64,000 nt of DNA from a virus (taxonomy: Duplodnaviria; Caudoviricetes): positions 7,901 through 71,900 of the IMG/VR virus record IMGVR_UViG_3300037455_001046. The stretch is one strand, 5' to 3'. The notes beneath the pieces were generated by a model that saw only the letters and a program-made list of their open reading frames with translations, ran no database searches and had not been told where the DNA came from. Position numbers and translations under genes: made by a program. This document shows, piece by piece, positions 6,001 to 40,493 of the stretch (position 1 is its first letter; each line of letters opens with the position of its first letter).

Positions 6001-9000
6001 CTTATCGGCAAAAACGAGGACGGCGTCCCCGCCGCCCCCTTCGAGAAGAACTGGGCCGAGCTGTCGATGAAGCGGATGCTCCGCTACGCCGCCGAGAACG
6101 GCTACGACTATGTGGCCTGGACGACGGGAGAGCAGCAGGCGGAGAGATATAGCCTCGGAGAGGTTTTGTCTTCAGTAGACAAGACGGGCGACAATGATTA
6201 CACCCTGTACCTTACGAACGGAAAATCGACTGATATTGTTGTTGACGACGAGGGCGTCATTACGGGGACGGATGCCTTCAGCGAGGAATGGGGAGGTAAG
6301 CGGCTTTCGGAGGTAGTCGGAAAGGATCTCGCCGTTAAGATGATGTCAATGGAAGTCGATAGCGACGATCTTGAACATATCGATTCGAGAATCGGCGGCG
6401 AGGGCATGAAGGGCTTCTACGACGAGATTCTGCCCCGCTTCATGAACAAGTACGGCAAGCAGTGGGGTGTGAAGGTGGAAGACATCACGCTGCCCGATCT
6501 CGGATACGGCGGTATTACCGCCCACTCCGTTCCCGTCAACGAGGCGATGAAGGAGTCCGTGATGGAAGGCCAGCTGATGTTCTCGGTGTCCCAGCAGGAA
6601 CAGACTGACCGCGAGCGCCTGATCGACGCCGCCGAAAACGGCGGCCTGAAGGCCGTCATCGGCCCGGAGAATGTCGAGGACATCTACCGCGAGGCCTATG
6701 CCTCCATCCCCCAGAGCGCCCTGAAACCCATCGTGGAGAAAGGGCTCGCCGAGGGTGGCGACATCATGGGCCAGCTGCGAGTGTATCTGCACGACCTTGC
6801 GCTGAACGGCACGGAGAACGACGGCACGGGCCTCCTGTTCAAGCTCTTCGAGGACATCCGATACATGTCGAACAACCCTGCACTCACGGACAACGACATC
6901 CGCTGGATGCTCTGGAAGGAGACGTGGAGCGAAGACCCCGACAGCATCCTCGCCATCGCGGCCAACCGCGCCATGAGAAACCGCTGGGGCGTCGGCGAGC
7001 CGCCCGTGGAGCAGGATTTCAAGGAAGCTGCGGAAGACGCGCAGAAAGCGGCCGCAGAGCGCGTGGAAACGGCGAAAAACGACCTGAAAGAGGAGAAGAA
7101 AGGCCTCTACGGGCCGCTGGATTCCATCGCGAAGGCCATGGCCGCGCAGAAGACCTACGACAAGGCGACCGTGGACAGCATCGTCCGCTTCGCCAAGGAC
7201 ATCCTCAAGGGCGGAAACGTCAGCGAACTGAGCCGCAGAGAGGTGTCCCGGCTGCTCTCGCTCATCAACACCAGCACGGGCAAGAGCCCGAAGCAGGCCT
7301 CGCGCTATGCAGACCAGCTGGTGGAGATGCTCCTGAACCATATCGCCGAGGAGGAGAAGAAGAAATTCGAGAAACTCGTCAAGGTGAAGGCCAGCAAGGT
7401 CAAGGACAGCGGCGTCGAGGTGCAGGGCAAGCTCGACCTCGTCGGCCAGGCCGTCATCAAGGCCTTCCGCGAGAACATGGGCAGCCCCGTGGAGGACATC
7501 CGCACCCGCCTCGAGGAGGTGTCCGACCAAATCACCAGCGAGGACGACGCCGTCCGCGAGGGTGCCCTGGCCGAATACAGCGGCCTGATGCTGGCTCTCC
7601 AGTACAAGGAGGACATCGCGGAGAACATCGAGGAATACAAGGATCTCAAGAAGGAATTCGACGCCACCGGCGTGAAACTCGCCGACGTCATCGGGCGCAA
7701 GGCCTACGAAGAGTTCGTCAAGGAGTCGCGAGACGCCCTCCGCAAGAACCTGATGGAGCGCATTGATATGTATCGCGACCTCTCGAAGCGGCTGACCGAC
7801 ATCATCACGGGCAGCGCAGAGGCCGCCGCGGCCTTCCGCAAGGCCGAGCAGCAGCGCGTGGAGGAGATCCACCACGATGCGAACCGCGACATGAAGGGAA
7901 CGCCGTCGAACGAGCATCTGCGCGAGAATGCCTGGCAGCGGTTCCTGAACTCCGACTTCATCCGTTTCTTCTTCAAGTCGCTGTCCACGGCAGACCAGAT
8001 GTTCCGCCTCCTGGGCCGCAAGAGCGTGACCGGAGAGGGCTATCTCTTCAACCGCTTCATCAAGAACGGCTTCATCCCGGCCAGCGAGAAAGCCTCGCGC
8101 GGCATCCTCGAAGCCACGCAGATCCTCGACAAGAAGGTCAGCGAGGTATTCGGCAAGAAGGGGATGAGGTGGAGCGACCTGTACAAGGAGTCTCGCAAGA
8201 AGGGCGGCGAGGTGGAATTCCTCGACGGCGGCGAGATGAAGACGCACGACCTGACGCAGGGCAACCTCCTCTACATCTATATGGCCAACAAGATGCCGGA
8301 CGGCAAGATGAAGCTCCGCAAGATGGGCATCGGCGAGGACACCGTGGAGGAGATCAAGAAGAACCTCGACCCTCGCTTCATAGAGCTGGCCGACTGGCTC
8401 CAGGATGAGTTCTATGTGAACCTCCGCAACAAGTACAACGCCGTCCACGAACGGATGTTCGGTGCGCCGATGGCCGCCATCGAGGACTACGTCCCGTTGA
8501 AGATCCTGGCCAACGCCCGATTCGAGGACGTAGACCTCGGCGCGCAGACGCAGGGAGAGATGTCGTCCACCATCACGGGCAGCATCATCAAGCGCCGCAA
8601 GAACTCCCTCGCGCTGGACATCATGCACACCGACGCCTTCTCCCTGGCCATCGAGCACATCGAGCAGATGGAGGACTGGGCGGCCTTCGCCGAGCTCCGC
8701 CGCGATATGAACACCCTGCTTTCGTACAAGCACTTCCGCAACCAGGTGATGAATATGGACACCGTCTACGGCAGCGGCCGGACGCTCTGGAGTAACTTCT
8801 CCGACGCCTGCACCGTGCTGGTGGGCAAGTACCAGCCGAAGGTGAAGAAGGGTGACATCGACACCATTGCGCTGAACGTGGCCAAGGGCGTAACGGCTGC
8901 GAAGATCTCGTTCCGCGTGAACACCGCCCTCAAGCAGCTGCTCTCGTTCCCGGCGTATTTCTCGGATGCCCGCCCCGATCTCCTCGCGGCGAGCATCGGG

Positions 9001-10638
9001 AAGACGGTCTTGAGCGTATTCAGGAAAGGGAACGCAGGATCATCGTGGAAGTGGTGCATGGAGAACCTGCCTCTCTTCGAGAAGCGCTGGAAGAGCCGCA
9101 TCGCCGGCGACACGCGCCTCCTCGACACGGAGTCCGACTGGAAGATCTGGAAGGACAACGTCGTCAAGACCGCCTCGCGCCTCGGTATGACGCCCAACGC
9201 CTTCATCGATGCGACCACGGTCGCCATCGGCGCGAAGGCGATGTACGACACCAAGCGCGCCCGCTACATCAAGGACGGATACTCCGAGGAGAAGGCTGAC
9301 GAGATGGCCAAGCGAGATGCAGAGATACTCTACAACCAGACGCAGCAGTCTTCCGAGAATGCCTTCGTCGCCCCCGTGCAACTCGATCGCACATGGTGGT
9401 CGGTCGCGCTGACCACCTACCGGAATGCCTCGATGAGCTACCAGCGCCAGCTGCACGATGCCCTCCGCACGATGGGCAAGATGATGAAACCCGGCTACCG
9501 CCAGCGCTCCATCGACTTCATGACGCACCAGAACGAGAACGCCGGCCTCGAAGAGGAAGAGGCGAGGAAAGCGGCGAAACGCGATTACAACCGCCAATAC
9601 TACCGCAACCTCGTCCGCGTCGCTCTCTTCGGATATGGACTCCAGTTCCTCTGGGAGATAGGAAACGATATGATTTATCTCCTCTTTGGTGATGACGACG
9701 ATGAGAAGGAGAAGATCCTGAAGGTGGCTGCGCTCTCGGAGATGGCCGCACCCGTCGAGGGTCTCGTTGGCGGCAACACGATGAGCGACAGATGGGGAAG
9801 GAAGGCCGAGAAGAAGGTGATGGCCGAGTACGGGATAGACAAGAAGAACAGATTCGGAAGCGGGAATGGCATTTCAAAACTGCCTATCGAGAGCGATTTC
9901 GAGAACATCTCCGGCTGGTGGGAAAGCGATGAAGCCCGTGCCGTCAACGGCATCATCAACCTGTTCGTCCAGGCCGGCGTCGGCGTGAATCCGCAGACCC
10001 TGACGGATGCCGTGGTCGCCGCCATCGACTATGCAGACGGAGATCTCGACAAGGCCACGGAGATGACCCTGCTCGCAATGCGTATCCTCCAGGTGCCGCA
10101 GTCCACGGTGGACAAGCTCCTCGCCGATGAGATAGACATGGAGGCTGATCCGAAAGAGAGGAAGGCGCAGATCGACGAACTGGCCAAGCGTTATGCGATG
10201 TATATGCTCCTGAAGAACACCACGGTCTTCAACAAGATGTACGACGAGGGCAAGCGCGAGAAGAAGCTGGAATCCTATGAGAATCGGTTCAAGGATCTCG
10301 CGAAGGAACGCATCGCCCTGAAGCGCGTCACCACGGGCGAGGAGATTCCCGATGCACCAGAAGACTTCTACAAGAGTTTCGAGAAAGCGATGAAGGCATT
10401 CCAGACGGAGTACAACAGAACCGACGAGAAGCACGACAATGACACCCTCACCCGCAGAGTCCTCGAGGAGTCCCCGGAATACCAGCAGTACCTCATCTGG
10501 AAGAAGCACCAAAAGGGCATCAACAAGCTGAACAACGGCATTAAGAAGACGCAGGACGACAACCTCCGCCAGCAGTGGAAAGACCAGCTGGATGAATCCA
10601 TCCAGGCGCTGATAAACGAACTTAACGAGAATAAATAG
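1..10638 (+). CDS. Giant polyvalent / DNA-ejection (internal virion) protein, 5'-truncated by the window edge
   Basis: Frame +1 is open from base 1 (EVRFSVRYAPKE...) into the 3498-aa ORF, so the true start is upstream. Contains an LPD23-like WQATGWERGADKGWRNEIPD segment, a zincin metallopeptidase motif (LMHEIQHAIQ...LAGEVEARN), recurrent RFS[VIL] linkers and a long helical C-terminus. Confidence 0.85.
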   Translation, partial: EVRFSVRYAPKESEVDAIAEDIATATGVSKEKARQWVESETGLVPIIMDEQNSPYLDYEGDDRYTAIKSDSDYPQGTVDFNNICRKRLPFTEMYQRIQRDFPNTIITGDDLATIRNIMKSHGLMVACGLCYVEDRRQLLGEIAQGFIVELSRDFRDYEKGSEQKRKNAEKFRKLVGDDHKEDLSIYDLLTLEGSSRLAQEHPGIYNAFQAFNNARGQQSGNLFQGYAEYKREILRWSKKKVAQVNSLGGLRIFSYSDFEAHHLIDLVQIIQDCAKKGVMIQGYTKVPAFARIVAGTNVKLNRSLIPLGETGIVDGRLAYDPVEGIDINDPDFLPSNDNIGNILIGINDEQIRLAMADPFVHFIIPYHSNQSSLLRKMKQTGAWTNYKNEQTEKALPGTDKGSVGHGVNIYTDVLAAAKKEGNPITNEREFTEKYLQVCKERGLKPVFARFLDVDEEGGYKYVPGYYKMLVDFKLFDENGNILPQKPVVAEFDDAFNQKVLEDYVRDVKAESGENLDGVYEEIVKELGLVERSASKLTDAQKKALAFVNGETIEEEEAIRPSISGDTQRLFDAAKERFGVTKDIREAGYVLPDGAMLDFSGRHWLKPGDDSSYLAGDRTVDHRDIQDIGYERDGNTPTGIKTSMSDFISRGAIRIHDGSGASINLAVKPTPEQVSVLTRLIEHNNGDVYLDLGDGEHTNASAYYDKTRPNRIINDIKRYFDEGVEPAGSIRFSLRGISGAENDAVAMQNLDIAEEMEAAGKDAKTIWQATGWERGADKGWRNEIPDGKPKVLPMGKKSFKVKDLIEAPELFESYPEIADYKVSLKKTSGAGSFNPTKKEIELDSDYNVKTDIKEGSQEEAMKYFSEHFTENIDRIAAFRRDVEKQFGERKLVKEGVRTLMHEIQHAIQSIEGFARGGSSRGQAQDILSAAYNDKPELVTFARWFSSENSIAKLLNFGRERMLNLLDQKRNIDALDEESKRRLTELRDYISDRLDVWGYRGFVNEASRLWLDSLDKGEMNYNKLAGEVEARNVEKRSRMTEEERRNTPPSETEDVAREEQGVRFSVSAGRVARENNAVFDGKRFFSGSVNLKNGKIEETHTYEDAKEDDFGTGYFSKGQQDKMESGESSSFYIDEDGKPRNGDGEEFSPDIEEAILKQVYPSVLENRVIYNGAPIYAGSINVKDGAIEETHSYEDAERSDFDNYFSPEQEEKIDSGDNVIFWIDENGIHFQGDITEEEKERLTEEIRNQVFSIRTTPVDESNEIRFSIREGEPPKKTGIGYKVFYQKDGKLYPPMVANAGGVDTPVGVWLDAEAAPIVGESKTGRPKVKQGGKGTQGGSGTLAYRPGWHLGEIPYALQFNRINPETGKKELFPKDFVWAEVEYAMDNDYQQEAEAEGMTEGGKFRHSYAGLKRVPENGYYRYRTNPNPETDPWIITGAMKVNRILSNEEVDDLVRQAGREPQQREGDVRFSIANDTSDESKIAEGIVSSYDNQDGSEQYPWVDNGELVDRIEKELPYGVKTKPIFAKIDEYRRLDEEDFNEGRRDFSGGEKEELFNEILSDLQSLARNDTGRGGDLRFSVANANQEVFVSNAQRAVENIRQEKATPEQWLKMIEKGGGMKAGEDKWLGLSDWLKGQDKKSITKQEILDYIGENKIIIEETRYTGNLRDEIQEHIGQGRSLSELQSEIDEIRASEEYKGLAGDRIDSDLLTEVMIDRYGDDFEMGYIIDEEGMIDYDIDVYADREYQENYTGKSKPINFVRRGYTTEGLENNAEIALTVPTIEPWNEQDDIHFGDAGGGRAIAWVRFGDAFTGEEKYDSGLLGNAEEARKSMDEYTSELMKKYGLSRLNQLDSAISKEERDKMRRLQKNYTRASWHAGESRQVSNEKKVLFIDEIQSKRHQEAREMGWYKGDAEYTRKLEELRNERMAASRELDSAVAQISKEYDEPLSRTWNSLVYPLRSDTTEKTKRLREKEARRKYGDETYERIVELERKDGDLAQRLANLIGKNEDGVPAAPFEKNWAELSMKRMLRYAAENGYDYVAWTTGEQQAERYSLGEVLSSVDKTGDNDYTLYLTNGKSTDIVVDDEGVITGTDAFSEEWGGKRLSEVVGKDLAVKMMSMEVDSDDLEHIDSRIGGEGMKGFYDEILPRFMNKYGKQWGVKVEDITLPDLGYGGITAHSVPVNEAMKESVMEGQLMFSVSQQEQTDRERLIDAAENGGLKAVIGPENVEDIYREAYASIPQSALKPIVEKGLAEGGDIMGQLRVYLHDLALNGTENDGTGLLFKLFEDIRYMSNNPALTDNDIRWMLWKETWSEDPDSILAIAANRAMRNRWGVGEPPVEQDFKEAAEDAQKAAAERVETAKNDLKEEKKGLYGPLDSIAKAMAAQKTYDKATVDSIVRFAKDILKGGNVSELSRREVSRLLSLINTSTGKSPKQASRYADQLVEMLLNHIAEEEKKKFEKLVKVKASKVKDSGVEVQGKLDLVGQAVIKAFRENMGSPVEDIRTRLEEVSDQITSEDDAVREGALAEYSGLMLALQYKEDIAENIEEYKDLKKEFDATGVKLADVIGRKAYEEFVKESRDALRKNLMERIDMYRDLSKRLTDIITGSAEAAAAFRKAEQQRVEEIHHDANRDMKGTPSNEHLRENAWQRFLNSDFIRFFFKSLSTADQMFRLLGRKSVTGEGYLFNRFIKNGFIPASEKASRGILEATQILDKKVSEVFGKKGMRWSDLYKESRKKGGEVEFLDGGEMKTHDLTQGNLLYIYMANKMPDGKMKLRKMGIGEDTVEEIKKNLDPRFIELADWLQDEFYVNLRNKYNAVHERMFGAPMAAIEDYVPLKILANARFEDVDLGAQTQGEMSSTITGSIIKRRKNSLALDIMHTDAFSLAIEHIEQMEDWAAFAELRRDMNTLLSYKHFRNQVMNMDTVYGSGRTLWSNFSDACTVLVGKYQPKVKKGDIDTIALNVAKGVTAAKISFRVNTALKQLLSFPAYFSDARPDLLAASIGKTVLSVFRKGNAGSSWKWCMENLPLFEKRWKSRIAGDTRLLDTESDWKIWKDNVVKTASRLGMTPNAFIDATTVAIGAKAMYDTKRARYIKDGYSEEKADEMAKRDAEILYNQTQQSSENAFVAPVQLDRTWWSVALTTYRNASMSYQRQLHDALRTMGKMMKPGYRQRSIDFMTHQNENAGLEEEEARKAAKRDYNRQYYRNLVRVALFGYGLQFLWEIGNDMIYLLFGDDDDEKEKILKVAALSEMAAPVEGLVGGNTMSDRWGRKAEKKVMAEYGIDKKNRFGSGNGISKLPIESDFENISGWWESDEARAVNGIINLFVQAGVGVNPQTLTDAVVAAIDYADGDLDKATEMTLLAMRILQVPQSTVDKLLADEIDMEADPKERKAQIDELAKRYAMYMLLKNTTVFNKMYDEGKREKKLESYENRFKDLAKERIALKRVTTGEEIPDAPEDFYKSFEKAMKAFQTEYNRTDEKHDNDTLTRRVLEESPEYQQYLIWKKHQKGINKLNNGIKKTQDDNLRQQWKDQLDESIQALINELNENK

Positions 10639-20754: not shown

Positions 20755-20829
20755 AATACCCGGGCCACGGCGTGGTAATAACCCTCAAAAAGGAGGGGAG
20801 GTGTGATGTGTTACCGGGTCGTGGCCTGT

Positions 20830-20874
20830 TTGGGAAAGATAGACCGTGGGAACAATTTATTGTTCCCATTTTTG
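20830..20874 (+). promoter_or_regulatory. Late-promoter element copy 1 (lysis operon)
   Basis: TTGGGAAAGATAGACC (20830-20845); CATTTTTG ends 29 nt after the motif. Confidence 0.7.
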
Positions 20875-20898
20875 ATTCAGCAAATTATCGGTACCATA

Positions 20899-21240
20899 AT
20901 GAACTGGACAAGCATCATCATAGCATTGGTAGGGGCGATCTTCGGGGCCGGCTTCTGGGCGGTGGTGAAGTCTATCGTCGACAAGAAGAAGACGCCATAT
21001 GAGATGTTCATGGAGTTGATGCAGAAGCAGACGGAGTTCTACGATTCCCTGAACGCAGCCTATGAGCTGGAGAAGCAGGACAGCGCGGAGAAATCTGCCG
21101 TCATCGCCAAGACCCACAAGTGCAAGCACCGCTTCAACGACCCGGAGATCATCTGCCCCGTGGAGACCGCCAACGAGGAACGCCTCAACCAGCGCTGTGT
21201 GCGCTGCGAATATAATCAGGACAAGGACGACGGGAAATGA
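20899..21240 (+). CDS. Putative holin
   Basis: N-terminal TM helix (WTSIIIALVGAIFGAGFWAVV) plus coiled-coil; overlaps the endolysin start (ATGA). Confidence 0.6.
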   Translation: MNWTSIIIALVGAIFGAGFWAVVKSIVDKKKTPYEMFMELMQKQTEFYDSLNAAYELEKQDSAEKSAVIAKTHKCKHRFNDPEIICPVETANEERLNQRCVRCEYNQDKDDGK

Positions 21241-21707
21241 AGACCATCGACACCATAGTCCTCCATTGCTCGGCCACGCGCGCCGGGATGGACGTCCGCG
21301 CCTCCGACATCGACAAGTGGCACAAGGAACGCGGCTTTGCGATGATCGGCTACAACTTCGTCATAGACCTTGACGGCACGGTGGAGGAGGGCCGCCCCCT
21401 GACAATGGACGGCGCGCACTGCATCGGCTACAACAACCACTCCATCGGCATCTGCTACATCGGCGGCCTGGACGCTTTCGGCAAGCCTTTCGACACGCGC
21501 ACCGTCGCGCAGAAGATCGCGATGCACCAGCTCGTCGGCAGACTGATGGACGAATATCCTACCATAACGCAGGTGATAGGCCACCGCGACACGTCACCCG
21601 ACCTGAACGGCGACGGCAAGATCACGCCGAACGAATGGATCAAAGCCTGTCCGTGCTTCGATGCCAGGTCGGAGTTTCCGATGTCCTATTGCTTTGCCAA
21701 CCGTTGA
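21237..21707 (+). CDS. Endolysin, N-acetylmuramoyl-L-alanine amidase (amidase_2 / T7 lysozyme-like)
   Basis: IVLHCSAT, HCIGYNNHSIGICYIGG, GHRD and KACPCFD zinc-amidase motifs. Confidence 0.92.
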   Translation: MKTIDTIVLHCSATRAGMDVRASDIDKWHKERGFAMIGYNFVIDLDGTVEEGRPLTMDGAHCIGYNNHSIGICYIGGLDAFGKPFDTRTVAQKIAMHQLVGRLMDEYPTITQVIGHRDTSPDLNGDGKITPNEWIKACPCFDARSEFPMSYCFANR

Positions 21708-21815
21708 CCATTGCAGCTCTTGCTGTTGTGTTTCGTGTGTTTTTGGTTTTTTGTATCAGTTGTGTGTGAGTGGGGACAGCGGTGAACGCTCTCCCCACAA
21801 ATTTTTGATAAAGCC

Positions 21816-22298
21816 ATGAAAGAAAAGATCATCTCAACCGTAATTGCAATCGCGGTAATCGCCGCGGCCTTCCTCGCCGGCTGGCTCGTCCGCGGCGAGA
21901 AACCCGCCCAAAACATCGTGATCACGGAGATCGTTGAGGTTCACGACACCACATTCGTTGACCGCCCTGTTTACATCAGCGAACGGGTCGTGGATACGCT
22001 CTTCTATCCCGTCCACATCTCCGACACAGTCAACATCCACACGATCGACTCCATCTACATCCCCCTGCCACGCGTCCAGCGGGAGTATGCCGACTCCACC
22101 TACCACGCCTGGGTGTCCGGCGTCGACCCCGCGCTGGACTCGCTCAATGTTTACAATCGTACACAGTACATCACCACGGTGGTGCAGAAGCCGCCGAAGC
22201 ACTGGCACGTCGGCGTGTCGGCCGGCTACGGCATCACGACGAAGGGACTCGCTCCGTACTGGGGCGTCGGCCTGTCCTACAGCCTCTTCTCCTTTTAG
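21816..22298 (+). CDS. Membrane-anchored lysis accessory protein (spanin-like)
   Basis: N-terminal TM helix, HDTTF/VDTL repeats and a C-terminal GVSAGYG...GVGLSY beta-hairpin; follows the endolysin. Confidence 0.55.
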   Translation: MKEKIISTVIAIAVIAAAFLAGWLVRGEKPAQNIVITEIVEVHDTTFVDRPVYISERVVDTLFYPVHISDTVNIHTIDSIYIPLPRVQREYADSTYHAWVSGVDPALDSLNVYNRTQYITTVVQKPPKHWHVGVSAGYGITTKGLAPYWGVGLSYSLFSF

Positions 22299-22359: not shown

Positions 22360-24402
22360 ATGATCAAGGCTGATCACCTCATAAGAAGAAAATCCTCGCC
22401 GGCCGACATGGACTCCGTGAAGGCGCGGCGGACTGAGCTTCGCTCCAAGGGCAAGGACCTCGACCTGCTGAAACGCTGCAACAGCATCTGGCGAAACAAC
22501 CTCGACGAATTCCGGCAGATGCGCGCCCGCGGCCACCGATTCTACGACGGCGACCAATGGGGTGACATGATCGAGGTCAACGGCAAGAAGATGACATACC
22601 GCCAGTACCTCCAGGCGACGGGCAACGTGGTCTTGCAGACGAACCAGATCAAGAACCGCGTGGACACCATCGTGGGCATCATGGTCAAGGAGAAGGGCGA
22701 GCCCGTGTGCCACGCCATAGACCGCGACGAGCAGCAGCTCGGCGAGATCGTAACGGAGGCGCTCCAGGCGAACTGCGACAAGAACGTCATCTCCGAGCTC
22801 TATATGAAATGGCTGAAGGAGATGTGCCTCGGCGGCCTCGCCGTGGCGTATGAGTCCTACGACGACACGCACGGACCCTCACGCCGCCTGGACTCCTGGA
22901 CGCAGTACATCAACCCGAACATGGTGTTCTTCGACGGCGAGGCCGTCGACCCGCGCTTCTGGGATTTCTCCATCGTCGGCCGTTTCTACTACGGCAGCTT
23001 CGAGGACATCTGCGCCCAGTTCGTGAAGTCGCCCGGCGACTACGACGTCCTCCGCCAGATCTACGCCACCAGCGCCGACAAGTTCAAGAGCGACGACCTC
23101 GAGAGCCCTGAGGAGCGTTTCGAGGACGGCAGCCTCGAGTTCGCCGAGAGCAACGACCCGAAGCGCTGTTTCGTCTGCGAGGTATGGACGAAGGAGACGC
23201 GGTCGTGCATCCGCCTCCACGACACCAACGACGGCACGGAGGAGATCATCGACGCCGACGACTATGCCTACCGCAAGGAGATCAAGGCGGAGAACGAGCG
23301 CCGCCGGCAGCTGGCCATCCAGGCCGGCTGGGGCGAGGAGGACGTGCCTTACATCGTCGGCGACGGCTACGGCAAGGACAAGGACGAGCGCAGCGGTTTC
23401 TTCATCGACACCTATTGGTACTGCCGCTTCCTGGCCCCCGACGGAACGATCCTCTGGGAGGGCGAGTCGCCGTATGCCGACCGCAGCCATCCGTTCTCGT
23501 TCTGCATTTTCTCATACATCGACGGCCGCATCGTGGGCTACTGCAACGACGCCATCGACCACAACGTCGCGATGAACCGCGCCGTCATCCTCCACGAATG
23601 GCTGGTGCGTTCACAGGCCAAGGGCGTCACGGTCGTGCCGCGGAAGCTCCTCGGCAACACCGATCCCACCGAGTTCTCGCGCTCCTGGACGGCCATCGAC
23701 GAGCTGGTGTTCGTCGACCTCGAACCCGGCGAGGAGGGCCTCATGCCGAAGCAGTTCAACGGCGTGGCGCAGACATTCGACATCGCCGGCCTGCTGGCCA
23801 CCTACCAGAGGCTGATGGACAGCGGATCGCCCGTGAACGGCGCGCTCCAGGGCGACACGCCCCACGCCGGCACGTCCGGCAGCCTGTATGCCCAGATGGC
23901 GACGAACGCGTCGACCCCCGTGGCCGCGATGATGGAGCAGTTCCGCAACTTCATCGTGACGGTGCTGAACAAGAAAATGAAGAACATCGTGAAGTTCTAC
24001 GCCCCCGAGCGTTTCCGCAGCATCGCCGGGCAGGTGGACAGCGTCACGGACATGGCCAACGTCGACCTGAACGACATCGCAGACCTGGAGTACGACCTCC
24101 GCATCCGCGAGAGTGCGAACACCCCCGTGTTCCGCGAGATGCAGGAGCAGGATCTGCTGCTCTTCCTCCAGGCCGGGTTCATCACCTTCGAGGAATACCT
24201 CGAGGCCTCCAGCAAGCCGTATGTGGACAAGATCCTCCAGAAGCGTCAGGCGCAGCAGGCGGAGATGCAGGACATGCAGCAGGGCGGGATGATGCCGCCG
24301 CAGCCGCAGGGCGGAGGCGGCATCCCCGAGAAGGCCATAGAAAGCGCCGGCCAGGATGCTCGCCCCGCGTCCCAGCTCCCCATCGGCGTCACGCCGTCCT
24401 AA
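22360..24402 (+). CDS. Portal protein
   Basis: 680 aa; RFYDGDQW...NQIKNRVDTIVG N-terminal pattern of P22/T7-like podovirus portals, with a Gln/Pro-rich C-tail; adjacent to the terminase. Confidence 0.85.
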   Translation: MIKADHLIRRKSSPADMDSVKARRTELRSKGKDLDLLKRCNSIWRNNLDEFRQMRARGHRFYDGDQWGDMIEVNGKKMTYRQYLQATGNVVLQTNQIKNRVDTIVGIMVKEKGEPVCHAIDRDEQQLGEIVTEALQANCDKNVISELYMKWLKEMCLGGLAVAYESYDDTHGPSRRLDSWTQYINPNMVFFDGEAVDPRFWDFSIVGRFYYGSFEDICAQFVKSPGDYDVLRQIYATSADKFKSDDLESPEERFEDGSLEFAESNDPKRCFVCEVWTKETRSCIRLHDTNDGTEEIIDADDYAYRKEIKAENERRRQLAIQAGWGEEDVPYIVGDGYGKDKDERSGFFIDTYWYCRFLAPDGTILWEGESPYADRSHPFSFCIFSYIDGRIVGYCNDAIDHNVAMNRAVILHEWLVRSQAKGVTVVPRKLLGNTDPTEFSRSWTAIDELVFVDLEPGEEGLMPKQFNGVAQTFDIAGLLATYQRLMDSGSPVNGALQGDTPHAGTSGSLYAQMATNASTPVAAMMEQFRNFIVTVLNKKMKNIVKFYAPERFRSIAGQVDSVTDMANVDLNDIADLEYDLRIRESANTPVFREMQEQDLLLFLQAGFITFEEYLEASSKPYVDKILQKRQAQQAEMQDMQQGGMMPPQPQGGGGIPEKAIESAGQDARPASQLPIGVTPS

Positions 24403-24818: not shown

Positions 24819-26927
24819 TTATAGTCTCGTCAGGTTCGAGTCGTCGCCTCGGATGACGGTGCGCCCTGAACGGCTCTCCTTCACCTCCCACGAAGGGAGC
24901 GGCATCTCCTTGTAGCATATCCACAGGCCGATGGCCCGCGACATCACGACATCGTCGTGCTTGCCATGTTCCGCATCGGTCTTCCCGTGGTCTTCCATAT
25001 AGGACGCCATCTGGTTGCAGCACAGGATGCTCGGCTCGTCCCATAGGTCGTCGCGGAGGCACTCCTTCATGAAGTTGATGATCTTTGGTTTCGTGCTGCG
25101 GTTGGTGTGGAACCCCCACTTGCTGCCGGTCTTCGTCTTGATGTCCTCCTCGGCGTTCTTCCTCATGTAGAGGTGGCCGTACAGGCCGGACACGATGTCC
25201 AGAATGTATTCGAAGGAGTCGATGCCGTTGTTGCGGTCCTCGTTCATTGACTCCATCGTGTTGCTCTCTATGACCAGCAGGGCGTTGTTGTACCACGCCG
25301 CGATCCTCATCGCGTCGTAGGCCTGGAGGTCGGGGTCTGCCTTGTAGTTCATTTCCGCCACGACGCCCGGCTTGCCGCCGAGGCCGAAGTCCGGCATCAT
25401 CAGGAGTCGGTCGATCACCGTGATGCAGGCAGGGTCCGCGCCGTCGCTCGCCCCTCTGCGCGGGTCGAGGATGACGATGTAGCGGTTCTTCACGGGCGAG
25501 TCGTCCGGCATCTCCCACACGCGCAGATTGCCCGTAGAGTTCGGGATGAACTGGATGTCCTGGAGGGCCTCCTCGCCTTTCGCGCCGGCGGCGACGAGGT
25601 CGCCGACGAACACGGGACGTCTGCACCGCTTGCTCTTCTCGTCAACCAGGAACGGGTCGAACACATGGTTGCCGGCGGTGAAGAACGCCTGCGCCGGCGT
25701 CTCGGGGGCCTCGTTGCACATCTTGGAGAACGACAGGCGCAGCCGGCGGTAGCGGTACCAGTTGATGTGTTCCAGCGTGGACCCCATCTCCCAGAGCCAG
25801 TAGTAATACTTGCCGCTGTCCTTCCATTTCCCATTTGGCACGTCCTCGTCCTTGTGGGTGACGAGCCATTCTATGAACCCGCGCAGATCCGCGATGGGCT
25901 TGTTGTCGTAGATGACGTCGCGCGAGGGCACGAACACCTGACGGTAGCCGCCCTTGCCGTCGTCGCACGACTTCCAGGTCTCCGCGAAATAGTCATCCGA
26001 GCTCTTCGCCGTGGACTCCATCACGCGCATATTGTCAGCGCCCTCCGTGATGCCGCCCTCGATGTCCGCGATGATGTCCTCCGCCTGTTTCCCTGGCGTG
26101 TCCGGCCAGAGTCCGACCTCGGAATAGTGCGCGCCGGAGATGTCCTTCGAGCGGAGGGTGTTCGGCTTCTCTGCCGTGCCGACGTAGATGTAACCCTCGA
26201 GTACCTGCCTGTTGCTCCCGTCCTTGAGCGTGAAGGCGTGACCCGTGGAGTCCGCTGGTGCGAGGTGCAGCTCCGTCTTGTCCGGCAGGCCGAGATCCCA
26301 GGACGGGTAGTCGGCGATGGTGCGCTTGAGCATCGTCAGGATCGTCTCCGACGCCGACGAGGTGTGTGCGGCGATGGCGAAGGAGTGGAACTCGTTCCAC
26401 TTGAACTGAAGCCAGCATTGGTAGAAGAAGCAGAACGTCGAGCCGCCCCACTGCCGCGCCTTGAGGATGATCAGCGATATGGGCTCGCCCAGCGCCCGCA
26501 TCTCCTCGCAGATGGCCAGCGCCATCAGCTGCGGCAGGTTGAGGGTGAACCTCACGCGCTTCTTCGCCGTCTTGTGCTTGATCCAAATGCAGAAGAACGC
26601 CCAGCACACGAAGTCGTGCTTGTGGCGTATTCGCCGTATCCGGCGCTCTATCTCCAGCGGTGACGGCTTGCCGTACTTCCATTTCTTCTTCTCGATGTAC
26701 GGCGCGATGCCCTTCGCCCGCACCACCTCCCTGACCAGCTTGTTCTTCATCATCTCGGGCGGCACCCACTGCACGGGGATGGCATAGTCCGGGATGCAGA
26801 GCTTCACGCGCTTGAGCCCCGTCAGCTCGGCCACGCCTTGGCCGGTCACGGGATCGTATTCCGCCCGCAGCCGCTCCCAGCGCCTCTCGTTCTCGGCGAT
26901 GAACTGCCTATAGATATCTTCCTGCAT
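24819..26927 (-). CDS. terL: Terminase large subunit
   Basis: Walker A IILKARQWGGST, Walker B-like SGAHYSEVGLW, RNase H nuclease motifs IVILDP and HDDVVMSRAIG. Confidence 0.92.
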   Translation of the reverse strand: MQEDIYRQFIAENERRWERLRAEYDPVTGQGVAELTGLKRVKLCIPDYAIPVQWVPPEMMKNKLVREVVRAKGIAPYIEKKKWKYGKPSPLEIERRIRRIRHKHDFVCWAFFCIWIKHKTAKKRVRFTLNLPQLMALAICEEMRALGEPISLIILKARQWGGSTFCFFYQCWLQFKWNEFHSFAIAAHTSSASETILTMLKRTIADYPSWDLGLPDKTELHLAPADSTGHAFTLKDGSNRQVLEGYIYVGTAEKPNTLRSKDISGAHYSEVGLWPDTPGKQAEDIIADIEGGITEGADNMRVMESTAKSSDDYFAETWKSCDDGKGGYRQVFVPSRDVIYDNKPIADLRGFIEWLVTHKDEDVPNGKWKDSGKYYYWLWEMGSTLEHINWYRYRRLRLSFSKMCNEAPETPAQAFFTAGNHVFDPFLVDEKSKRCRRPVFVGDLVAAGAKGEEALQDIQFIPNSTGNLRVWEMPDDSPVKNRYIVILDPRRGASDGADPACITVIDRLLMMPDFGLGGKPGVVAEMNYKADPDLQAYDAMRIAAWYNNALLVIESNTMESMNEDRNNGIDSFEYILDIVSGLYGHLYMRKNAEEDIKTKTGSKWGFHTNRSTKPKIINFMKECLRDDLWDEPSILCCNQMASYMEDHGKTDAEHGKHDDVVMSRAIGLWICYKEMPLPSWEVKESRSGRTVIRGDDSNLTRL

Positions 26928-27396
26928 CGCTCTTTATGCCTTGCCACCAGCGGCCGACGGCCGCGCCGCCCATCCCCAGGAGGAAGGCGGCGACGTGCGT
27001 GGTGGCGCTGAAACGGGGGATGAAGACCATCGCCACGGTCACGGCGAGGAACACCCACACCACGGGCTGCCGCCACCAGGGCGAGGACAGGGGCGGGGTG
27101 CGTAGACCCAGCACGGCGTAGAGGATGTTCGAGAATCCGATCACGGGGCGGAAGGAGAGGGGATAGACCGCTATGGCAATAATATAAGGAATGACAAAAT
27201 CCCTGCAAGCCTTGCAGCGGCCGGGGCGGTAGATGCTCCAGATGGCGACGCTGTTCACGGCGAGGTGCCGCCAGTTCGCGTGGAAGAACGAGTACAGCAG
27301 GGCGCGGTCCCAGTAGCCGCCCGTGGTCAGGATCTCGGGGATGCCGACGGCGGCCTGGATGACGGCGAAGGCCACGATGAGGATCAGTCGTACCAT
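26908..27396 (-). CDS. Rhomboid-like intramembrane serine protease (162 aa)
   Basis: Start at the ATG (27396) overlapping the upstream stop. Several TM helices; FFHANWRHLAVN (HxxxxHxxxN), GFS (candidate catalytic Ser) and THVAAFLLG (candidate catalytic His). Confidence 0.72.
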   Translation of the reverse strand: MVRLILIVAFAVIQAAVGIPEILTTGGYWDRALLYSFFHANWRHLAVNSVAIWSIYRPGRCKACRDFVIPYIIAIAVYPLSFRPVIGFSNILYAVLGLRTPPLSSPWWRQPVVWVFLAVTVAMVFIPRFSATTHVAAFLLGMGGAAVGRWWQGIKSDAGRYL

Positions 27397-27800
27397 CCCA
27401 GCCTCCTCCTGCGGCGTTTCATCTCGCCCCGCAGCATCTTTCGCGCTCCGTCCGTGGAGATGTAGAACTCGGGGGCGGGGCGGTCCACCAGCAGCTCCAT
27501 GATCCGCTCGCGGGAGAGCGACGTGCCTGGGTTCTCCTCGAGGAAGCGCAGGTAGTCCGCATAGAGCTGGCGCACCATCCGGCGCTGCGATTCGTGGCAC
27601 TCGGACAGCGTCGAGCCGGCGATCATCTTGCCGACGAGGAGGGATGCGGACTTGGATGATATGAAGAAACAGGGGGCCGGCTGGCGCGCACACCACGACG
27701 CCGCGCCGAACATCGAGTCGAAGCGGCCCTCCTTCAGTCCTCTCTTGTAAACGGAATAGAGCGCCTCCGCCTTCTTCCGCGTAAGCCCGTTGTCTCTCAA
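27384..27800 (-). CDS. Hypothetical protein, first gene of the terminase operon (possible regulator or small terminase)
   Basis: Probable TTG start at 27800; internal duplication QPAPCFFIS / RPAPEFYIS; basic C-terminus. Confidence 0.55.
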   Translation of the reverse strand: MRDNGLTRKKAEALYSVYKRGLKEGRFDSMFGAASWCARQPAPCFFISSKSASLLVGKMIAGSTLSECHESQRRMVRQLYADYLRFLEENPGTSLSRERIMELLVDRPAPEFYISTDGARKMLRGEMKRRRRRLGWYD

Positions 27801-27827
27801 GGCAGTGAAGAAGGTGGTCGCAGTCCG

Positions 27828-27838
27828 TTGCGAATATA
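27828..27838 (-). promoter_or_regulatory. Leftward -7 box for the terminase operon
   Basis: Minus-strand TATATTCGCAA, identical to the 11-mer at 61282-61292 downstream of late element copy 4. Confidence 0.5.
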
Positions 27839-27866
27839 CGAAAAAAAGTTGAATGGAGGGGCTCCT

Positions 27867-27912
27867 TTGGGAAAGATAGACCAAAATGCACAAGTCAAAG
27901 AAATAATTTTGA
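27867..27912 (+). promoter_or_regulatory. Late-promoter element copy 3 (scaffold/capsid operon)
   Basis: TTGGGAAAGATAGACC (27867-27882); AATTTTTG ends 30 nt after the motif. Confidence 0.7.
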
Positions 27913-27942
27913 TCCGTTAAGGATTGTAAACACTTTTTCACA

Positions 27943-28713
27943 ATGGAAGAAGAGAATAAGACTCAAGCCCCTTCGCCCCGCGAGAACCTGCTCGCCAGGG
28001 CGCGTGAGCGCTTCAGCGACCGCACGTTCGACGACCTCGGCGTGGAGCAGCCCTCGGAGGGTGCCGCCGATCTTGACGAGGCCATCGACGAGATGCTGAC
28101 TGAGCTCATCAACAAGCAGACGACCTACGACGAGAAGAACGCCCGCCTCACGGAACTCCTGATGTCAGACCCTTCCGCCGCGGAGTACCTCCAGAGATGG
28201 GTGGAGACGAAAGATCCGCGCACCGCCCTCGTCGAGACTTTCGGCGACGAGCTCGGCATGAGCGAGGAGGCGCAGGCCGGTTTCCAGGGCAACCTCGAAA
28301 GCTGGCGCGAGCGCAAGGCCGCCAACGACGCCATCGAGGCGCAGGCCCAGGCCAACTGGGACGAGTCCCTCGCCGCCCTCGAGTCGTGGGGCGATGAGCG
28401 CGGACTCTCGATGGAGAACAAACGCGACATCATGCTGCACCTCCTCGGCGTCACCTACAACGGTCAGGAGAACAAGTACGGACCCGAAGAGTTCGAGATG
28501 GCGTGGCATGCGATGAACTACGACAATGATGTGGCCGCCGCCCGCGCAGAGGGTCAGGTCGCCGGACGCAACGAGCGCATCGAGGCCGCCCGCCGCGACC
28601 GCTCCGTCGCCGGTGCCATGCCGCCCGCGGCATCCGGCAGCCAGGGAGGCCGCACCCGCGAACGCCGCCCCGAGCCGGAAGGCGACATCTGGGACAACCT
28701 TTCCAAACGATAA
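27943..28713 (+). CDS. Capsid scaffolding protein
   Basis: Acidic helical 256-aa protein immediately upstream of the capsid gene. Confidence 0.65.
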   Translation: MEEENKTQAPSPRENLLARARERFSDRTFDDLGVEQPSEGAADLDEAIDEMLTELINKQTTYDEKNARLTELLMSDPSAAEYLQRWVETKDPRTALVETFGDELGMSEEAQAGFQGNLESWRERKAANDAIEAQAQANWDESLAALESWGDERGLSMENKRDIMLHLLGVTYNGQENKYGPEEFEMAWHAMNYDNDVAAARAEGQVAGRNERIEAARRDRSVAGAMPPAASGSQGGRTRERRPEPEGDIWDNLSKR

Positions 28714-28734
28714 ACCATAACATTTTGATTTAAT

Positions 28735-30465
28735 ATGAAACGGATCAATTTCTTCAAAACCCATAAGATGAGCGTCCTCTCGATGCTTCTTGTGGTGGCC
28801 GCGGTCCTGCTGGGTGCAGACCCCGGCTTTGCGATGGCTGTCGACCCCGTCGACCTGGCTGGCAACGCCAACCCGTCCACGAACCTCGACACCTATGACG
28901 CCTCTACGAACCCCGGCGGCCGTCCGGCCGACGAGACCCTCCAGACCGATGAGCAGGGTGGCAAGACCCAGCTCCAGGGCAAGGCCGCTACCGGCACCGA
29001 CGTCACCGACGCCGGCCTCGAGGCGGAAGACTACGACGACCGCGTGGACAACTTCAAGAAGTTCGCCTTCCCGATCGAGACCTACGTCGCCCGCCGCTGC
29101 CGTCCGCAGAAGGTCAACAGCTACATCCACAAGCACTACCGCACGGGTTCGACCGACCTGGTCGCCACCTACACCGGCAGCAGCTTCAACATCGTGGCCG
29201 GCCAGAACACCTCGACGACCTACATCGCATCGACGCGCATCCTGACCCTGTCGGTCTCCGACTTCGAGAACCCCGAGTGCCTGCTCGAATACTCCACCGT
29301 CGCCGTGCGTGGCGTCGAGGGCTTCAAGAAGGACGACTCCGGCAACGAGATCTCCGACGGCGAGATGATCCTCTATGTCCTGGATCACAAGGACACCAAC
29401 GACAAGGTTAAGTTCTATGTCGTGAACGCCCCGTTCAACACCACGGGCAGCGCCACCACCGTGACCTTCGCCGCGAACACCGAGCTCTACGTCATGGGTA
29501 CCGCCTGCTCCGAGTCGCAGATGAGAGTCGCCCCCGAGACCTACCTCCCGGAAGGCTTCGACCAGTATCTCCAGAAGAAGATCGAGACCGTCGTCATCAC
29601 CGACTACTTCGACGAGCAGACCAAGAAGGTCAGCCACAAGACCCAGCAGGTTCTGGACAACGCCGCCTATAACTTCAAGCGCAAGTGCGCCCGCTCCCAC
29701 TGGAACGGCACGATGGCCGCCAAGGACATCATCGTTCCCGAGACCGGCCGCGAGCGCGTGTACATGGAGAACGGCCTGCTCCGTCAGGTCAACATGCTCT
29801 ACACACACGGCAGCGAGTTCACCGACGACGACCTCCTCGCCCTCACCACGCTGATGTTCACGGACAACTCCGCCAGCGAGAAGGCCACCGCCTTCTGCGG
29901 AAAGAAAGCTATGAAGCGCTTCATCCAGCTGGTCAACAGCGCCCAGAAGTACAAGGAAGTCAGCAAGGTCACCGTGAACGACTACGGCATCCGCGTCCGC
30001 AAGTACGAAGACAACTTCGGCGAGATCGAATTCGTCTGGGACCGCACCCTCGACGACCTCGGCTATGAGGAATACATGGTCATCCTCGACCTGAGTAACG
30101 CCACCCGTTACTATATGCGTAACGACCAGAAGACGACCCGCGACATGAGCAAGACCGGCGAGGCCCGCGAGGCCAAGGAGCACAACCTCTGCCGCATCGA
30201 CTGCGTCGCGCTGAACGGCTTCAACAGCATCATCGCCTGCCCGAGCTCGATGGCCATCGCCGCCAAGAACACCGGCGGCATCCAGGCCGAGTTCCACAGC
30301 GTGAGCGCCCTGCCTACCGGCAGCGCCCTCGATGCCACGGCCAAGTCCTATCGCTACTACCTGACCGCCGACGACGAAACCTCCGGCTTCAACAAGGGAG
30401 ACGTCGTCGAATGGGATACCGACCTCGACGGCTGGGTGGAATTCGAAGGCCTCATCCGCGCCTAA
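28735..30465 (+). CDS. Major capsid protein (HK97-fold, SU10-like) with an N-terminal signal-peptide-like leader
   Basis: Follows the scaffold, precedes a strong terminator and has strongly biased codons. Segments YLQKKIETVVITD, YNFKRKCARSHWNG, MENGLLRQ and YEDNFGEIEFVWD resemble this capsid class. Confidence 0.78.
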   Translation: MKRINFFKTHKMSVLSMLLVVAAVLLGADPGFAMAVDPVDLAGNANPSTNLDTYDASTNPGGRPADETLQTDEQGGKTQLQGKAATGTDVTDAGLEAEDYDDRVDNFKKFAFPIETYVARRCRPQKVNSYIHKHYRTGSTDLVATYTGSSFNIVAGQNTSTTYIASTRILTLSVSDFENPECLLEYSTVAVRGVEGFKKDDSGNEISDGEMILYVLDHKDTNDKVKFYVVNAPFNTTGSATTVTFAANTELYVMGTACSESQMRVAPETYLPEGFDQYLQKKIETVVITDYFDEQTKKVSHKTQQVLDNAAYNFKRKCARSHWNGTMAAKDIIVPETGRERVYMENGLLRQVNMLYTHGSEFTDDDLLALTTLMFTDNSASEKATAFCGKKAMKRFIQLVNSAQKYKEVSKVTVNDYGIRVRKYEDNFGEIEFVWDRTLDDLGYEEYMVILDLSNATRYYMRNDQKTTRDMSKTGEAREAKEHNLCRIDCVALNGFNSIIACPSSMAIAAKNTGGIQAEFHSVSALPTGSALDATAKSYRYYLTADDETSGFNKGDVVEWDTDLDGWVEFEGLIRA

Positions 30466-39688: not shown

Positions 39689-39790
39689 ATGCGAAAATTC
39701 CTCATCGTCCTCAAAGACATCCTCATTCTCCCGATCGCGCTCATAGCGCTGGTCGGCATATTAATCATCAACCTGTTTTCAAATGAATAA
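39689..39790 (+). CDS. 33-aa hydrophobic single-TM peptide (not in the ORF track)
   Basis: MRKFLIVLKDILILPIALIALVGILIINLFSNE*; overlaps the next start. Confidence 0.5.
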   Translation: MRKFLIVLKDILILPIALIALVGILIINLFSNE

Positions 39791-39971
39791 GATCCCTTTC
39801 GGCATCTACGTCGTCGCCCTCTTCATCTGGGGGCTGATCGCCATCGCCACCTCCGCCGCGGTCTGGAACTCCCATCCCGGCACGTTCCTCTCCATCGTGG
39901 CCGCCCTGAACCTTGCCATCAACGGCTGGTGCATCTATTGGAAAATTAAGAACATCCCTCCGATGCAGTAG
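39783..39971 (+). CDS. Small two-TM membrane protein
   Basis: 62 aa with two hydrophobic helices. Confidence 0.6.
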   Translation: MNKIPFGIYVVALFIWGLIAIATSAAVWNSHPGTFLSIVAALNLAINGWCIYWKIKNIPPMQ

Positions 39972-39973
39972 CC

Positions 39974-40096
39974 ATGGCGACGAAACCCACACCCAGAAAG
40001 TCCTCCGGCAAGACGGCAAAGACCGTCAAGCCGCAGATGGTGCCCAGATCAAGAAAGACCGCAAATGGAAACCCCAGACCCAAGAAGCGCTCTTGA
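39974..40096 (+). CDS. 40-aa highly basic peptide (not in the ORF track)
   Basis: MATKPTPRKSSGKTAKTVKPQMVPRSRKTANGNPRPKKRS*; TAGCCATG coupling to the upstream gene. Confidence 0.5.
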   Translation: MATKPTPRKSSGKTAKTVKPQMVPRSRKTANGNPRPKKRS

Positions 40097-40493
40097 GCGG
40101 ATCATCGGGGTGACCAGGCGGTTCACGAAGGTTGTACAGGTACTACCTTTCGTGTATCTGCTGGTCTTTGCCTTCGTGGCGATCGCAGAGCCGTTCCTCT
40201 CGGACAGCGCCTTCGACCTGGTCAACAACCTCTTCTATGTAGCGCCGGGCATCCAGGCCGTTGCCCTCGGCCTCTCCCGGCTTCTCCGCCTCTGCCGCTG
40301 GCATAAGATAGCCTGCCTTCTGCCGATGTCGTCACAGGCGGAGAGCTACATAGACGGATATCTCTTCCAATTCGCGCAGAACGAAATCGTCTGCGTCAAC
40401 ACGGTGATCGGAATCATATCGGTCGCCTTCATCGTTTTCTCCATCCGCCATTTCTTCCATGGACGCCAAAGACCTGGTACGGCAAACGCTTGA
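40065..40493 (+). CDS. Multi-TM membrane protein
   Basis: Three to four hydrophobic segments in 142 aa. Confidence 0.55.
   Translation: METPDPRSALERIIGVTRRFTKVVQVLPFVYLLVFAFVAIAEPFLSDSAFDLVNNLFYVAPGIQAVALGLSRLLRLCRWHKIACLLPMSSQAESYIDGYLFQFAQNEIVCVNTVIGIISVAFIVFSIRHFFHGRQRPGTANA

Follow-up and report, generated by a model that had tools for sequence, protein, structure and literature searches.

Why should the coat protein of a tailed phage begin with what looks like a membrane signal, and does the rhomboid protease encoded beside it act on that signal? The question is raised by a 64 kb stretch of phage DNA, here called the window, which comprises bases 7901-71900 of the 71.9 kb IMG/VR virus record IMGVR_UViG_3300037455_001046, rated complete by CheckV. 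Tailed-phage capsid assembly is regarded as purely cytoplasmic, with soluble maturation proteases where any exist. In the window, the gene for the major capsid protein (MCP) opens with an export-type leader, and a gene for a minimal rhomboid lies in the neighbouring terminase operon. Leader and rhomboid are both real, intact, under purifying selection and co-distributed. Some phages, all of them without the rhomboid, have a naturally leaderless capsid protein, and it begins at the Met-Ala that aligns with the proposed cleavage site. We regard a functional tie between leader and rhomboid as moderately probable, taking together the reading in which the rhomboid acts on the leader and the one in which host signal peptidase removes it. 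Such a tie would point to an undescribed membrane-linked step in tailed-phage capsid building. No description of a phage rhomboid linked to a capsid leader was found in the literature, including the gut-phage paper of Benler 2021. The elements on which the argument turns are the following.

26908..27396, minus strand: rhomboid intramembrane serine protease, minimal form with six transmembrane (TM) helices, 162 aa (Pfam, invariant residues, AlphaFold2 (AF2) model, fold match to GlpG)
28735..30465, plus strand: major capsid protein, 576 aa, HK97-type, SU10_MCP family (Pfam, PHROG 1328, PDB profile match)
28735..28839, plus strand: capsid leader, codons 1-35 (read directly; conserved in homologues)
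28840..29025, plus strand: acidic Pro/Gly/Thr-rich segment, capsid residues 36-97, between leader and HK97 core (conservation; few K/R after the site)

The host is assigned to the Bacteroidales, which are diderm, because two Bacteroidales metagenome-assembled genomes carry close copies of the rhomboid, one of them within a 243 kb contig. The host habitat is probably the rumen or gut. A tblastn search of 50,697 GenBank phage records gave no match to the capsid protein or the rhomboid, and by this search the phage appears to have no cultured relative. The group is abundant in rumen and gut metagenomes, where more than 270 capsid and 250 rhomboid clusters and many complete genomes of 60-70 kb were found.

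The capsid leader and the rhomboid gene

The product of 28735-30465 is identified by sequence comparison as an HK97-type major capsid protein of the SU10_MCP family. Pfam SU10_MCP (PF17236) matches residues 98-479 with 51.5 bits against a cut-off of 24.1, and PHROG 1328 ('major head protein') matches the open reading frame (ORF). The capsid alignment profile matches PDB entry 9in6, 'major capsid of VP1', with an E value of 3e-7, and the gene is syntenic with the portal, large terminase (terL) and scaffold genes in related loci.

An earlier inspection of this stretch, here called the sequence-only reading, described a capsid leader with a basic n-region, a hydrophobic h-region of 16 residues, a helix-breaking D-P-G and an A-x-A site. 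The ORF begins exactly as described; the hydrophobic stretch, M12-A28, counts 17 residues. The n-region occupies residues 1-11, with the basic residues K/R/K/H/K within residues 2-11. The hydrophobic stretch is followed by a G-A-D-P-G break and then by F-A-M-A and V-D-P. The putative cleavage site lies after A35, which places Ala at P1, Phe at P4 and Asp at P2', with the helix on the P side.

The same reading allowed that the true start might lie downstream of the hydrophobic stretch, which does not hold. The leader is present in all full-length members of 120 capsid homologues (64-90% identity), and the mean top-residue frequency is 0.85 in its h/c part versus 0.78 in the capsid core. Many leader positions use three to six different codons for one or two residues, and positions with a single residue use up to six codons. 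The 30 nt upstream of M1 are 80% A+T, compared with 30% upstream of M34, the next Met after the hydrophobic stretch. An A+T-rich context is typical of Bacteroidales starts. The leader is coding sequence and not a miscalled start because it is conserved in homologues, varies synonymously and has the A+T context of M1; it is thus a real, translated part of the protein, as conserved as the capsid core. The acidic segment behind it looks like low-complexity sequence, yet its residues 46-97 (window 28870-29025) have a mean top-residue frequency of 0.87 versus 0.78 in the core. A segment more conserved than the HK97 core is no mere spacer.

Relatives extend the pattern well beyond the immediate clade. 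Among 1.84 billion cluster representatives, 271 capsid relatives were found, and the n-h-c leader is present in 96 of 122 full-length representatives of 50% clusters, down to ~22% identity. Across representatives, the n-region carries a charge of about +2.6, and the 30 residues after the site about -3.7, with about one K/R. A Met-Ala anchor ends the leader in 55 of the 96 leader-bearing representatives. Of these 55, 32 have Ala at P3 and 40 have L/F/V/I at P4; P5-P7 are occupied by G/S/D. About 40% of representatives lack the Met-Ala anchor, and several of them show Ile-Ala or Leu-Ala there.

The ORF at 26908-27396 on the minus strand encodes 162 aa from an ATG at 27396 and is a bona fide, intact rhomboid. 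The sequence-only reading had proposed a minimal rhomboid with HxxxxHxxxN, GFS and a TM His, and this identification is upheld by family, motif and fold. Pfam PF01694 (MEROPS S54) matches with 29.9 bits against a cut-off of 22.6, and with 30.5 bits in the genome scan. The motifs are H39-x4-H44-x3-N48 in TM2, G87-F-S89-N in TM4 and H134 in TM6. Their codons, all on the minus strand, lie at these positions.

27280-27282: H39
27265-27267: H44
27253-27255: N48
27130-27132: S89
26995-26997: H134

The GlpG equivalents of S89, H134, H39, H44 and N48 (S201, H254, H145, H150 and N154) were assigned by motif and helix position. About 250 homologues of ~160 aa occur in metagenomes. In an alignment of 60 of them, down to 28% identity, the only invariant positions are H39, H44, G87, S89, A94 and H134, and N48 is at least 90% conserved. 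Six of the aligned rhomboids come from phages with a capsid protein of only 27-41% identity to that of the window.

A phmmer search of PDB sequences with the rhomboid gave no match, and therefore a fold search was needed to link it to known structures. An AF2 model from the single sequence was poor (pLDDT 56), and the model from the 60-sequence alignment was used instead (pLDDT 94.6, pTM 0.88). The best 39 Foldseek matches of this model all belong to the rhomboid superfamily (GlpG, iRhom and Derlin). VIA-align against GlpG 95-272 gave Z 14.1 and a root-mean-square deviation of 3.0 Å over 151 of the 162 residues, whereas unrelated folds drop to Z 4. With its catalytic positions kept, the rhomboid is apparently active. 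Its K/R-rich parts are the N-terminus, the TM2-3 loop, the TM4-5 loop and the C-terminus. Because these segments follow the positive-inside rule, the topology is predicted to be GlpG-like, N-in/C-in, with the active site facing the periplasm. Membership in the rhombosortases was considered and rejected: TIGR03902 gives 13.7 bits against a cut-off of 84, and the candidate signal is N-terminal rather than a C-terminal motif, helix and basic tail.

The rhomboid gene lies within a divergent head-packaging module. The plus strand carries the portal, scaffold-like and capsid genes, and the minus strand carries an ORF at the small-terminase (terS) position, the rhomboid, terL and a 133-aa ORF. The further members with family matches are listed here.

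22360..24402, plus strand: portal protein, P22-type (Pfam P22_portal, 88.7 bits; PHROG 156)
24819..26927, minus strand: large terminase (terL), 702 aa (PHROG 24361 'terminase'; syntenic in all related loci)
27384..27941, minus strand: small ORF at the terS position with two 'APxFY'-type motifs (phrog_27246, match over residues 57-177)
27943..28713, plus strand: scaffold-like protein, 256 aa, directly 5' of the capsid gene (phrog_22323, E 5e-31)

The rhomboid gene shares 13 nt at its start with the end of the preceding ORF and 20 nt at its own end with the beginning of terL. These overlapping stop and start codons make the rhomboid an integral member of the packaging operon, and it is probably co-transcribed with the packaging genes under translational coupling. 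Its place in the terminase operon thus agrees with the sequence-only reading, and its distance from the capsid gene is 1.3 kb, not the 2 kb given there. The ORF at 27384..27941 may be the small terminase, judging from its terS position, and translation of it probably begins at some codon after the GTG at 27941. Its homologues stand directly before terL in leaderless phages (for example, L006) and before the rhomboid in leader-bearing ones. A scaffold function of 27943..28713 is suggested by position and composition, and the position of this gene is kept in all loci.

The absence of an HK97-type prohead protease, noted earlier for the window, extends to the whole genome. No match at E <= 1 was found anywhere in the 71.9 kb record for PF04586, PF03420, PF00574 or PF01343, a scan that covered the S78 (Peptidase_S78), S77, ClpP and S49 families.

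Co-distribution of leader and rhomboid

The co-occurrence of leader-bearing capsids and rhomboids had been proposed as a check on their connection. Loci were gathered with three alignments (the rhomboid, the leaderless capsid proteins and a third capsid subgroup) and by exact look-up of diverged representatives, and they were scored with hidden Markov models for MCP, rhomboid and TerL. The locus L118 stops short of the terL region and some looked-up contigs are too short to judge; the count covers the 172 loci that span both MCP and TerL. Leader and rhomboid occur together in 88 of these loci, 81 have neither, three (all in one clade) have the leader only, and none has the rhomboid only. In every positive lineage the rhomboid lies between the terS-position ORF and terL, and the leader-bearing lineages that carry it include at least eight diverged ones.

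Rhomboid-positive lineages: window clade, L029, L030-32, L115, L116, L117, L119, L120, L127/130, L132/144, L156-159, L160-202

In leaderless phages, terL follows directly after the small terS-position ORF, and no rhomboid was found in these loci even at E <= 10 with filters off. Among complete genomes, a Pfam rhomboid over the cut-off is present in 5/5 leader-bearing versus 0/5 leaderless ones.

The leaderless capsid proteins begin with M-A-E, which aligns with L-M-A followed by D or E (P2, P1 and P1') in the sister leader-bearing clade. Stop codons lie in frame upstream of their starts, and these proteins are truly leaderless. Since the leaderless clade starts at the proposed site, a capsid protein beginning there is functional. 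This form would arise most simply by truncation of the gene at its 5' end, with the P2 Met taken over as start codon, and therefore the M-A-E alignment alone does not fix the cleavage position. Long tblastn spans in some 'leaderless' loci raised the possibility of a hidden upstream leader exon. This was rejected, since the additional matching sequence belongs to a separate mini-ORF, a copy of the N-terminal arm of the capsid protein that has no hydrophobic stretch. Some leaderless phages (L074:~6992-7162; L053:~6960-7140; L056, L060 and relatives) carry this mini-ORF, ~55 aa long, with the scaffold gene on one side and the capsid gene on the other. It is a diverged copy of the arm (...GSAGL.TQVPG...ATGGI.PGN...) and lacks the hydrophobic leader.

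The three loci with a leader only are L114, L126 and L131. Their place between the terS-position ORF and terL is taken by two paralogous soluble ORFs (L114:4584-5563, minus strand; also in L126 and L131), which replace the rhomboid. Those of L114 match phrog_19255, a family of no known function, and show no protease signature. The leader c-region of this clade is longer and more polar, with a D-(N/E)-E-x-G insert. Because the leader is kept without a rhomboid here, the phage enzyme is not always needed. The resulting asymmetry, in which the enzyme never occurs without the leader and the leader sometimes occurs without the enzyme, would be expected of a leader that is the substrate of the enzyme, with a host enzyme able to stand in for it, although it is not proof of this.

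TerL and MCP trees were made from 47 representative loci, the MCP-core tree with the leader columns removed. On the MCP-core tree, the leaderless proteins form a single clade nested among leader-bearing ones, sister to L132/L144, and the leader was therefore lost once. The TerL tree mixes leader-bearing with leaderless phages; the leader changes four times, and each of the three independent contrasts with support pairs the rhomboid with the leader. The two phylogenies are strongly discordant. L032 and L160, for example, have a TerL near that of leaderless phages and a capsid protein only ~24% identical to theirs. Because the trees disagree in this way, head modules have evidently been exchanged between terminase backgrounds, apparently with the rhomboid always accompanying the leader-bearing capsid gene.

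Other genes of the genome

A lysis cassette at 20806-22298 on the plus strand lies just upstream of the portal gene. Apart from its members, a hydropathy scan of the window found two small ORFs as the other plausible membrane proteins, and none of these ORFs has a leader ending in A-M-A.

20806-21240, plus strand: holin-like ORF with one TM helix (hydropathy scan)
21237-21707, plus strand: Amidase_2 endolysin with a weak EF-hand-like C-terminus (lysis cassette member)
21816-22298, plus strand: DUF6808 protein with an N-terminal signal anchor (lysis cassette member)
39783-39971 and 40065-40493, plus strand: two small ORFs of 62 and 142 aa with two predicted TM helices each (no family match; near the integrase region)

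The DUF6808 protein may act as a spanin. As a candidate partner of the rhomboid it was rejected: it is present in 3/5 rhomboid-less genomes and shows no co-variation.

A giant ORF of at least 3498 aa runs from 142 to 10638 on the plus strand and is followed by ORFs of 926, 610, 1136 and 464 aa up to 20368. Its equivalents in relatives have 4000-5900 aa and carry polyvalent-protein domains (LPD38, ART-PolyVal, Kinase-PolyVal and helicase), and for this reason the giant ORF and those after it probably encode ejected proteins. The leaderless clade, at least, is temperate, since three of its five complete genomes are classified as proviruses. Reverse-transcriptase genes (RVT_1) occur in the tail region of L006 (20666-21554) and L118 (15281-16603), as in diversity-generating retroelements.

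Mechanism, alternatives and known systems

From these data we infer membrane insertion of the leader, its cleavage, the cleaving enzyme and the position of the cut. The capsid protein would first appear as a precursor with a membrane-inserting leader of 35 residues, on which the phage's own rhomboid would act. The cut would most likely fall at or beside the hydrophobic-Ala-Met-Ala site before Val, just past the helix-breaking G-A-D-P-G. The mature subunit, beginning near V36, would then leave the membrane and assemble with scaffold and portal. Action of the rhomboid on the leader of a membrane-inserting precursor is proposed tentatively, as something not far short of an even chance. That the rhomboid is the very enzyme that removes the leader is possible, and is held with a little more reserve. 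It is rather unlikely that subunits are inserted by a Sec-type leader and freed for assembly only by the viral cut, an arrangement that would amount to a membrane-coupled head-assembly checkpoint. If true, the checkpoint would imply a viral structural protein as natural rhomboid substrate, with a cleavage geometry opposite to that of canonical substrates.

Topology is the main difficulty for action of the rhomboid on the leader, and several further observations weigh against it. In polarity the leader matches a Sec signal (N-in/C-out): its N-side is basic, its C-side acidic and poor in K/R. The site would therefore lie on the periplasmic side and C-terminal to the helix, the reverse of canonical substrates such as TatA. 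A domain of 540 capsid residues cannot usefully be exported, and an N-in/C-out leader sits badly with a capsid that forms in the cytoplasm: either most of the protein would end up outside, or the chain would have to slip back, a step without precedent. Only a single loss of the leader appears on the MCP-core tree, the TerL-tree contrasts number only three to four (sign test p 0.25), three being too few for significance, and the L114, L126 and L131 clade keeps the n-h-c leader and A-M-A site without a phage rhomboid. Rhomboid divergence tracks TerL (partial Spearman 0.60) and not MCP (0.23); rhomboid distances gave no co-evolution signal with the MCP core or the leader, and TerL correlated better. 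Block recombination could also explain the pattern, because the rhomboid, terS-position ORF, scaffold and MCP genes are contiguous. The co-distribution is thus less independent than the raw counts suggest.

Loop insertion offers a way around the topology problem. The leader would enter the membrane N-in, as at the start of Sec translocation, and the G-A-D-P-G turn and the site would reach the outer face, meeting the periplasm-facing active site. The acidic segment 36-97 would thread back, leaving the folded HK97 core in the cytoplasm, and the short threaded stretch, now carrying the N-terminus of the capsid protein, would slip back once the cut is made. That residues 46-97 are so conserved (0.87) agrees with a specific function of this acidic segment. 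Alternatively, the leader may be an interfacial anchor that the protease reaches in an unconventional way.

The residues around the site bear on the choice of enzyme. The rhomboid recognition motif consists of a small P1, a large hydrophobic P4 and a hydrophobic P2' (Strisovsky et al. 2009; PMC2941825). The leader matches at P1 and P4, two of the three key positions, and P2' is not reliably hydrophobic. It is often Asp or a small residue (Asp in the window, A/V/G/T elsewhere), and Asp and Pro lie close to the site, which counts against a rhomboid cut since either residue near the site is deleterious in TatA (PMC2941825). The leader also has, as read from the sequence, the tripartite n-h-c layout and the small residues at -3/-1 of signal peptidase I substrates. 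As far as the residues tell, signal peptidase I would fit the site equally well, and only a missing Q-rule would separate it from the rhomboid as the cutter. Most Bacteroidetes substrates of signal peptidase I expose Gln at +1 (PMC5837995), and Gln at P1' was found in 0/77 representatives and 0/117 clade members.

These residues are the starting point for the alternative that host signal peptidase I removes the leader at A-x-A while the rhomboid has a secondary, leader-related job. Taken as a whole this account is unlikely, although the -3/-1 rule fits it well (P1 Ala, and P3 Ala in 32/55 representatives), with helix breakers at -5 to -7. The rhomboid could degrade the tens of thousands of freed leader peptides, in the manner of a signal-peptide peptidase, or clear jammed precursors, which could keep membrane and translocon intact until programmed lysis. 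The retention of leader and A-M-A site in the rhomboid-less L114 clade agrees with this, as does the fact that the rhomboid never occurs without the leader, which would be its substrate whether cleaved or not. The G-A-D-P-G break is likewise a helix-destabilising feature of the type that rhomboids use (PMC2941825). The missing Gln at +1 speaks against host signal peptidase, and the topology paradox is not relieved, since this enzyme also cuts at the periplasmic face. Conservation of the leader also far exceeds that of ordinary signal peptides.

The canonical substrate orientation is opposite to that of the leader, which would suit a target elsewhere. The rhomboid may act on a membrane protein of the host or on a protein that the phage uses for lysis or entry. 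Its link with the leader would then reflect physical linkage and block recombination in the head-packaging module and not an enzyme-substrate relation. The contiguity of the genes, the single joint loss that suffices on the MCP tree and the divergence that follows TerL rather than MCP or leader are all in keeping with this. Other phages, such as the Stenotrophomonas phages DLP3 and DLP5, carry rhomboid genes that are annotated as morons without a proposed role (PMC7326821). We nevertheless consider this explanation fairly unlikely. Every rhomboid in the 172 loci comes with a leader, and this holds in more than eight diverged lineages and on several TerL backgrounds. The gene occupies no moron position but sits in the late packaging operon with overlapping stop and start codons. 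Nor does the lysis-cassette protein DUF6808, with its signal anchor, co-vary with the rhomboid, and the other plausible membrane ORFs in the hydropathy scan of the window lack an A-M-A leader. Quite improbable is a case without proteolysis, in which the leader stays on all or some subunits as a membrane anchor or internal procapsid element, or in which the gene has two starts, M1 giving a minor membrane-bound form and M34 (the P2 Met) the leaderless building block. The P2 Met is kept in 55/96 diverged leader-bearing representatives, a position that proteases constrain little (PMC2941825), and the leaderless clade starts exactly at this Met, so a protein starting there works as a capsid protein. 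Against two starts stand the poor Bacteroidales start context of M34 (30% A+T in the preceding 30 nt versus 80% before M1) and the ~40% of representatives with no Met-Ala anchor, in several of which Ile-Ala or Leu-Ala takes its place. The rhomboid would also be left unexplained.

Cleavage of the leader by the rhomboid, if true, would provide a new route for capsid protein maturation and a reason for an export-type signal on a highly expressed cytoplasmic protein. To our knowledge, natural substrates have been found for very few bacterial-type rhomboids and for none encoded by a virus. Rhomboid biology would gain an enzyme and substrate that form a clean, compact genetic unit, and the leaderless clade would serve as a natural 'pre-cleaved' control. 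If host signal peptidase cuts instead, a Sec-type leader on an HK97 coat protein still needs explaining.

The phage rhomboid shares with GlpG of E. coli and H. influenzae (MEROPS S54, PF01694) the fold, the TM2 HxxxxHxxxN, the TM4 GxSx, the TM6 His and the predicted topology. In contrast to GlpG, to which it is only 18-20% identical, it is a bare core of 162 aa with no cytoplasmic domain and a shorter L1 region, and it is encoded by a virus inside a terS-terL operon. A close functional likeness is to AarA and TatA of Providencia stuartii (PMC3712462; PMC2941825). There, a bacterial-type rhomboid of six or seven TM helices removes a short N-terminal extension at a site with a small P1 and a hydrophobic P4, enzyme and substrate belong to one functional unit, and the cut activates a protein that then oligomerises. 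TatA, however, is N-out/C-in, is cut N-terminal to its helix and loses 8 residues. The phage leader has N-in polarity with the site C-terminal to the helix, and ~35 residues including the whole helix would be removed from a 576-aa HK97 substrate. The rhombosortase/GlyGly-CTERM system is similar in that processing of a sorting signal was deduced from near-perfect co-distribution, with adjacency when there is a single target (Haft & Varghese 2011, PMC3237569). Its signal is a C-terminal motif, helix and basic tail on exported proteins, in which the motif precedes an N-out/C-in helix (PMC3237569). The phage signal is N-terminal and stands on a capsid protein.

Prohead-protease systems (HK97 gp4 of S78, T4 gp21 of S77 and ClpP/S49-like enzymes) resemble the present one in having an N-terminal precursor part that is dispensable in the mature shell and a phage protease gene in the head module. 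These prohead proteases are soluble, are packaged in the prohead and cut after shell assembly. The candidate enzyme described here is membrane-embedded, the leader resembles a membrane signal rather than a scaffolding domain, and a separate scaffold-like gene is present. The M13 procoat is a coat protein with a cleavable signal peptide followed by an acidic stretch, which is processed by leader peptidase and assembled from the membrane. M13, however, has a 50-residue coat protein that resides in the membrane and possesses a second helix of its own, and its virion is extruded through the envelope, whereas the phage studied here has a large soluble HK97-fold subunit and packages its DNA by means of portal and terminase. 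The likeness to M13 lies in a virus coat protein that carries a signal-peptide-like leader followed by an acidic stretch.

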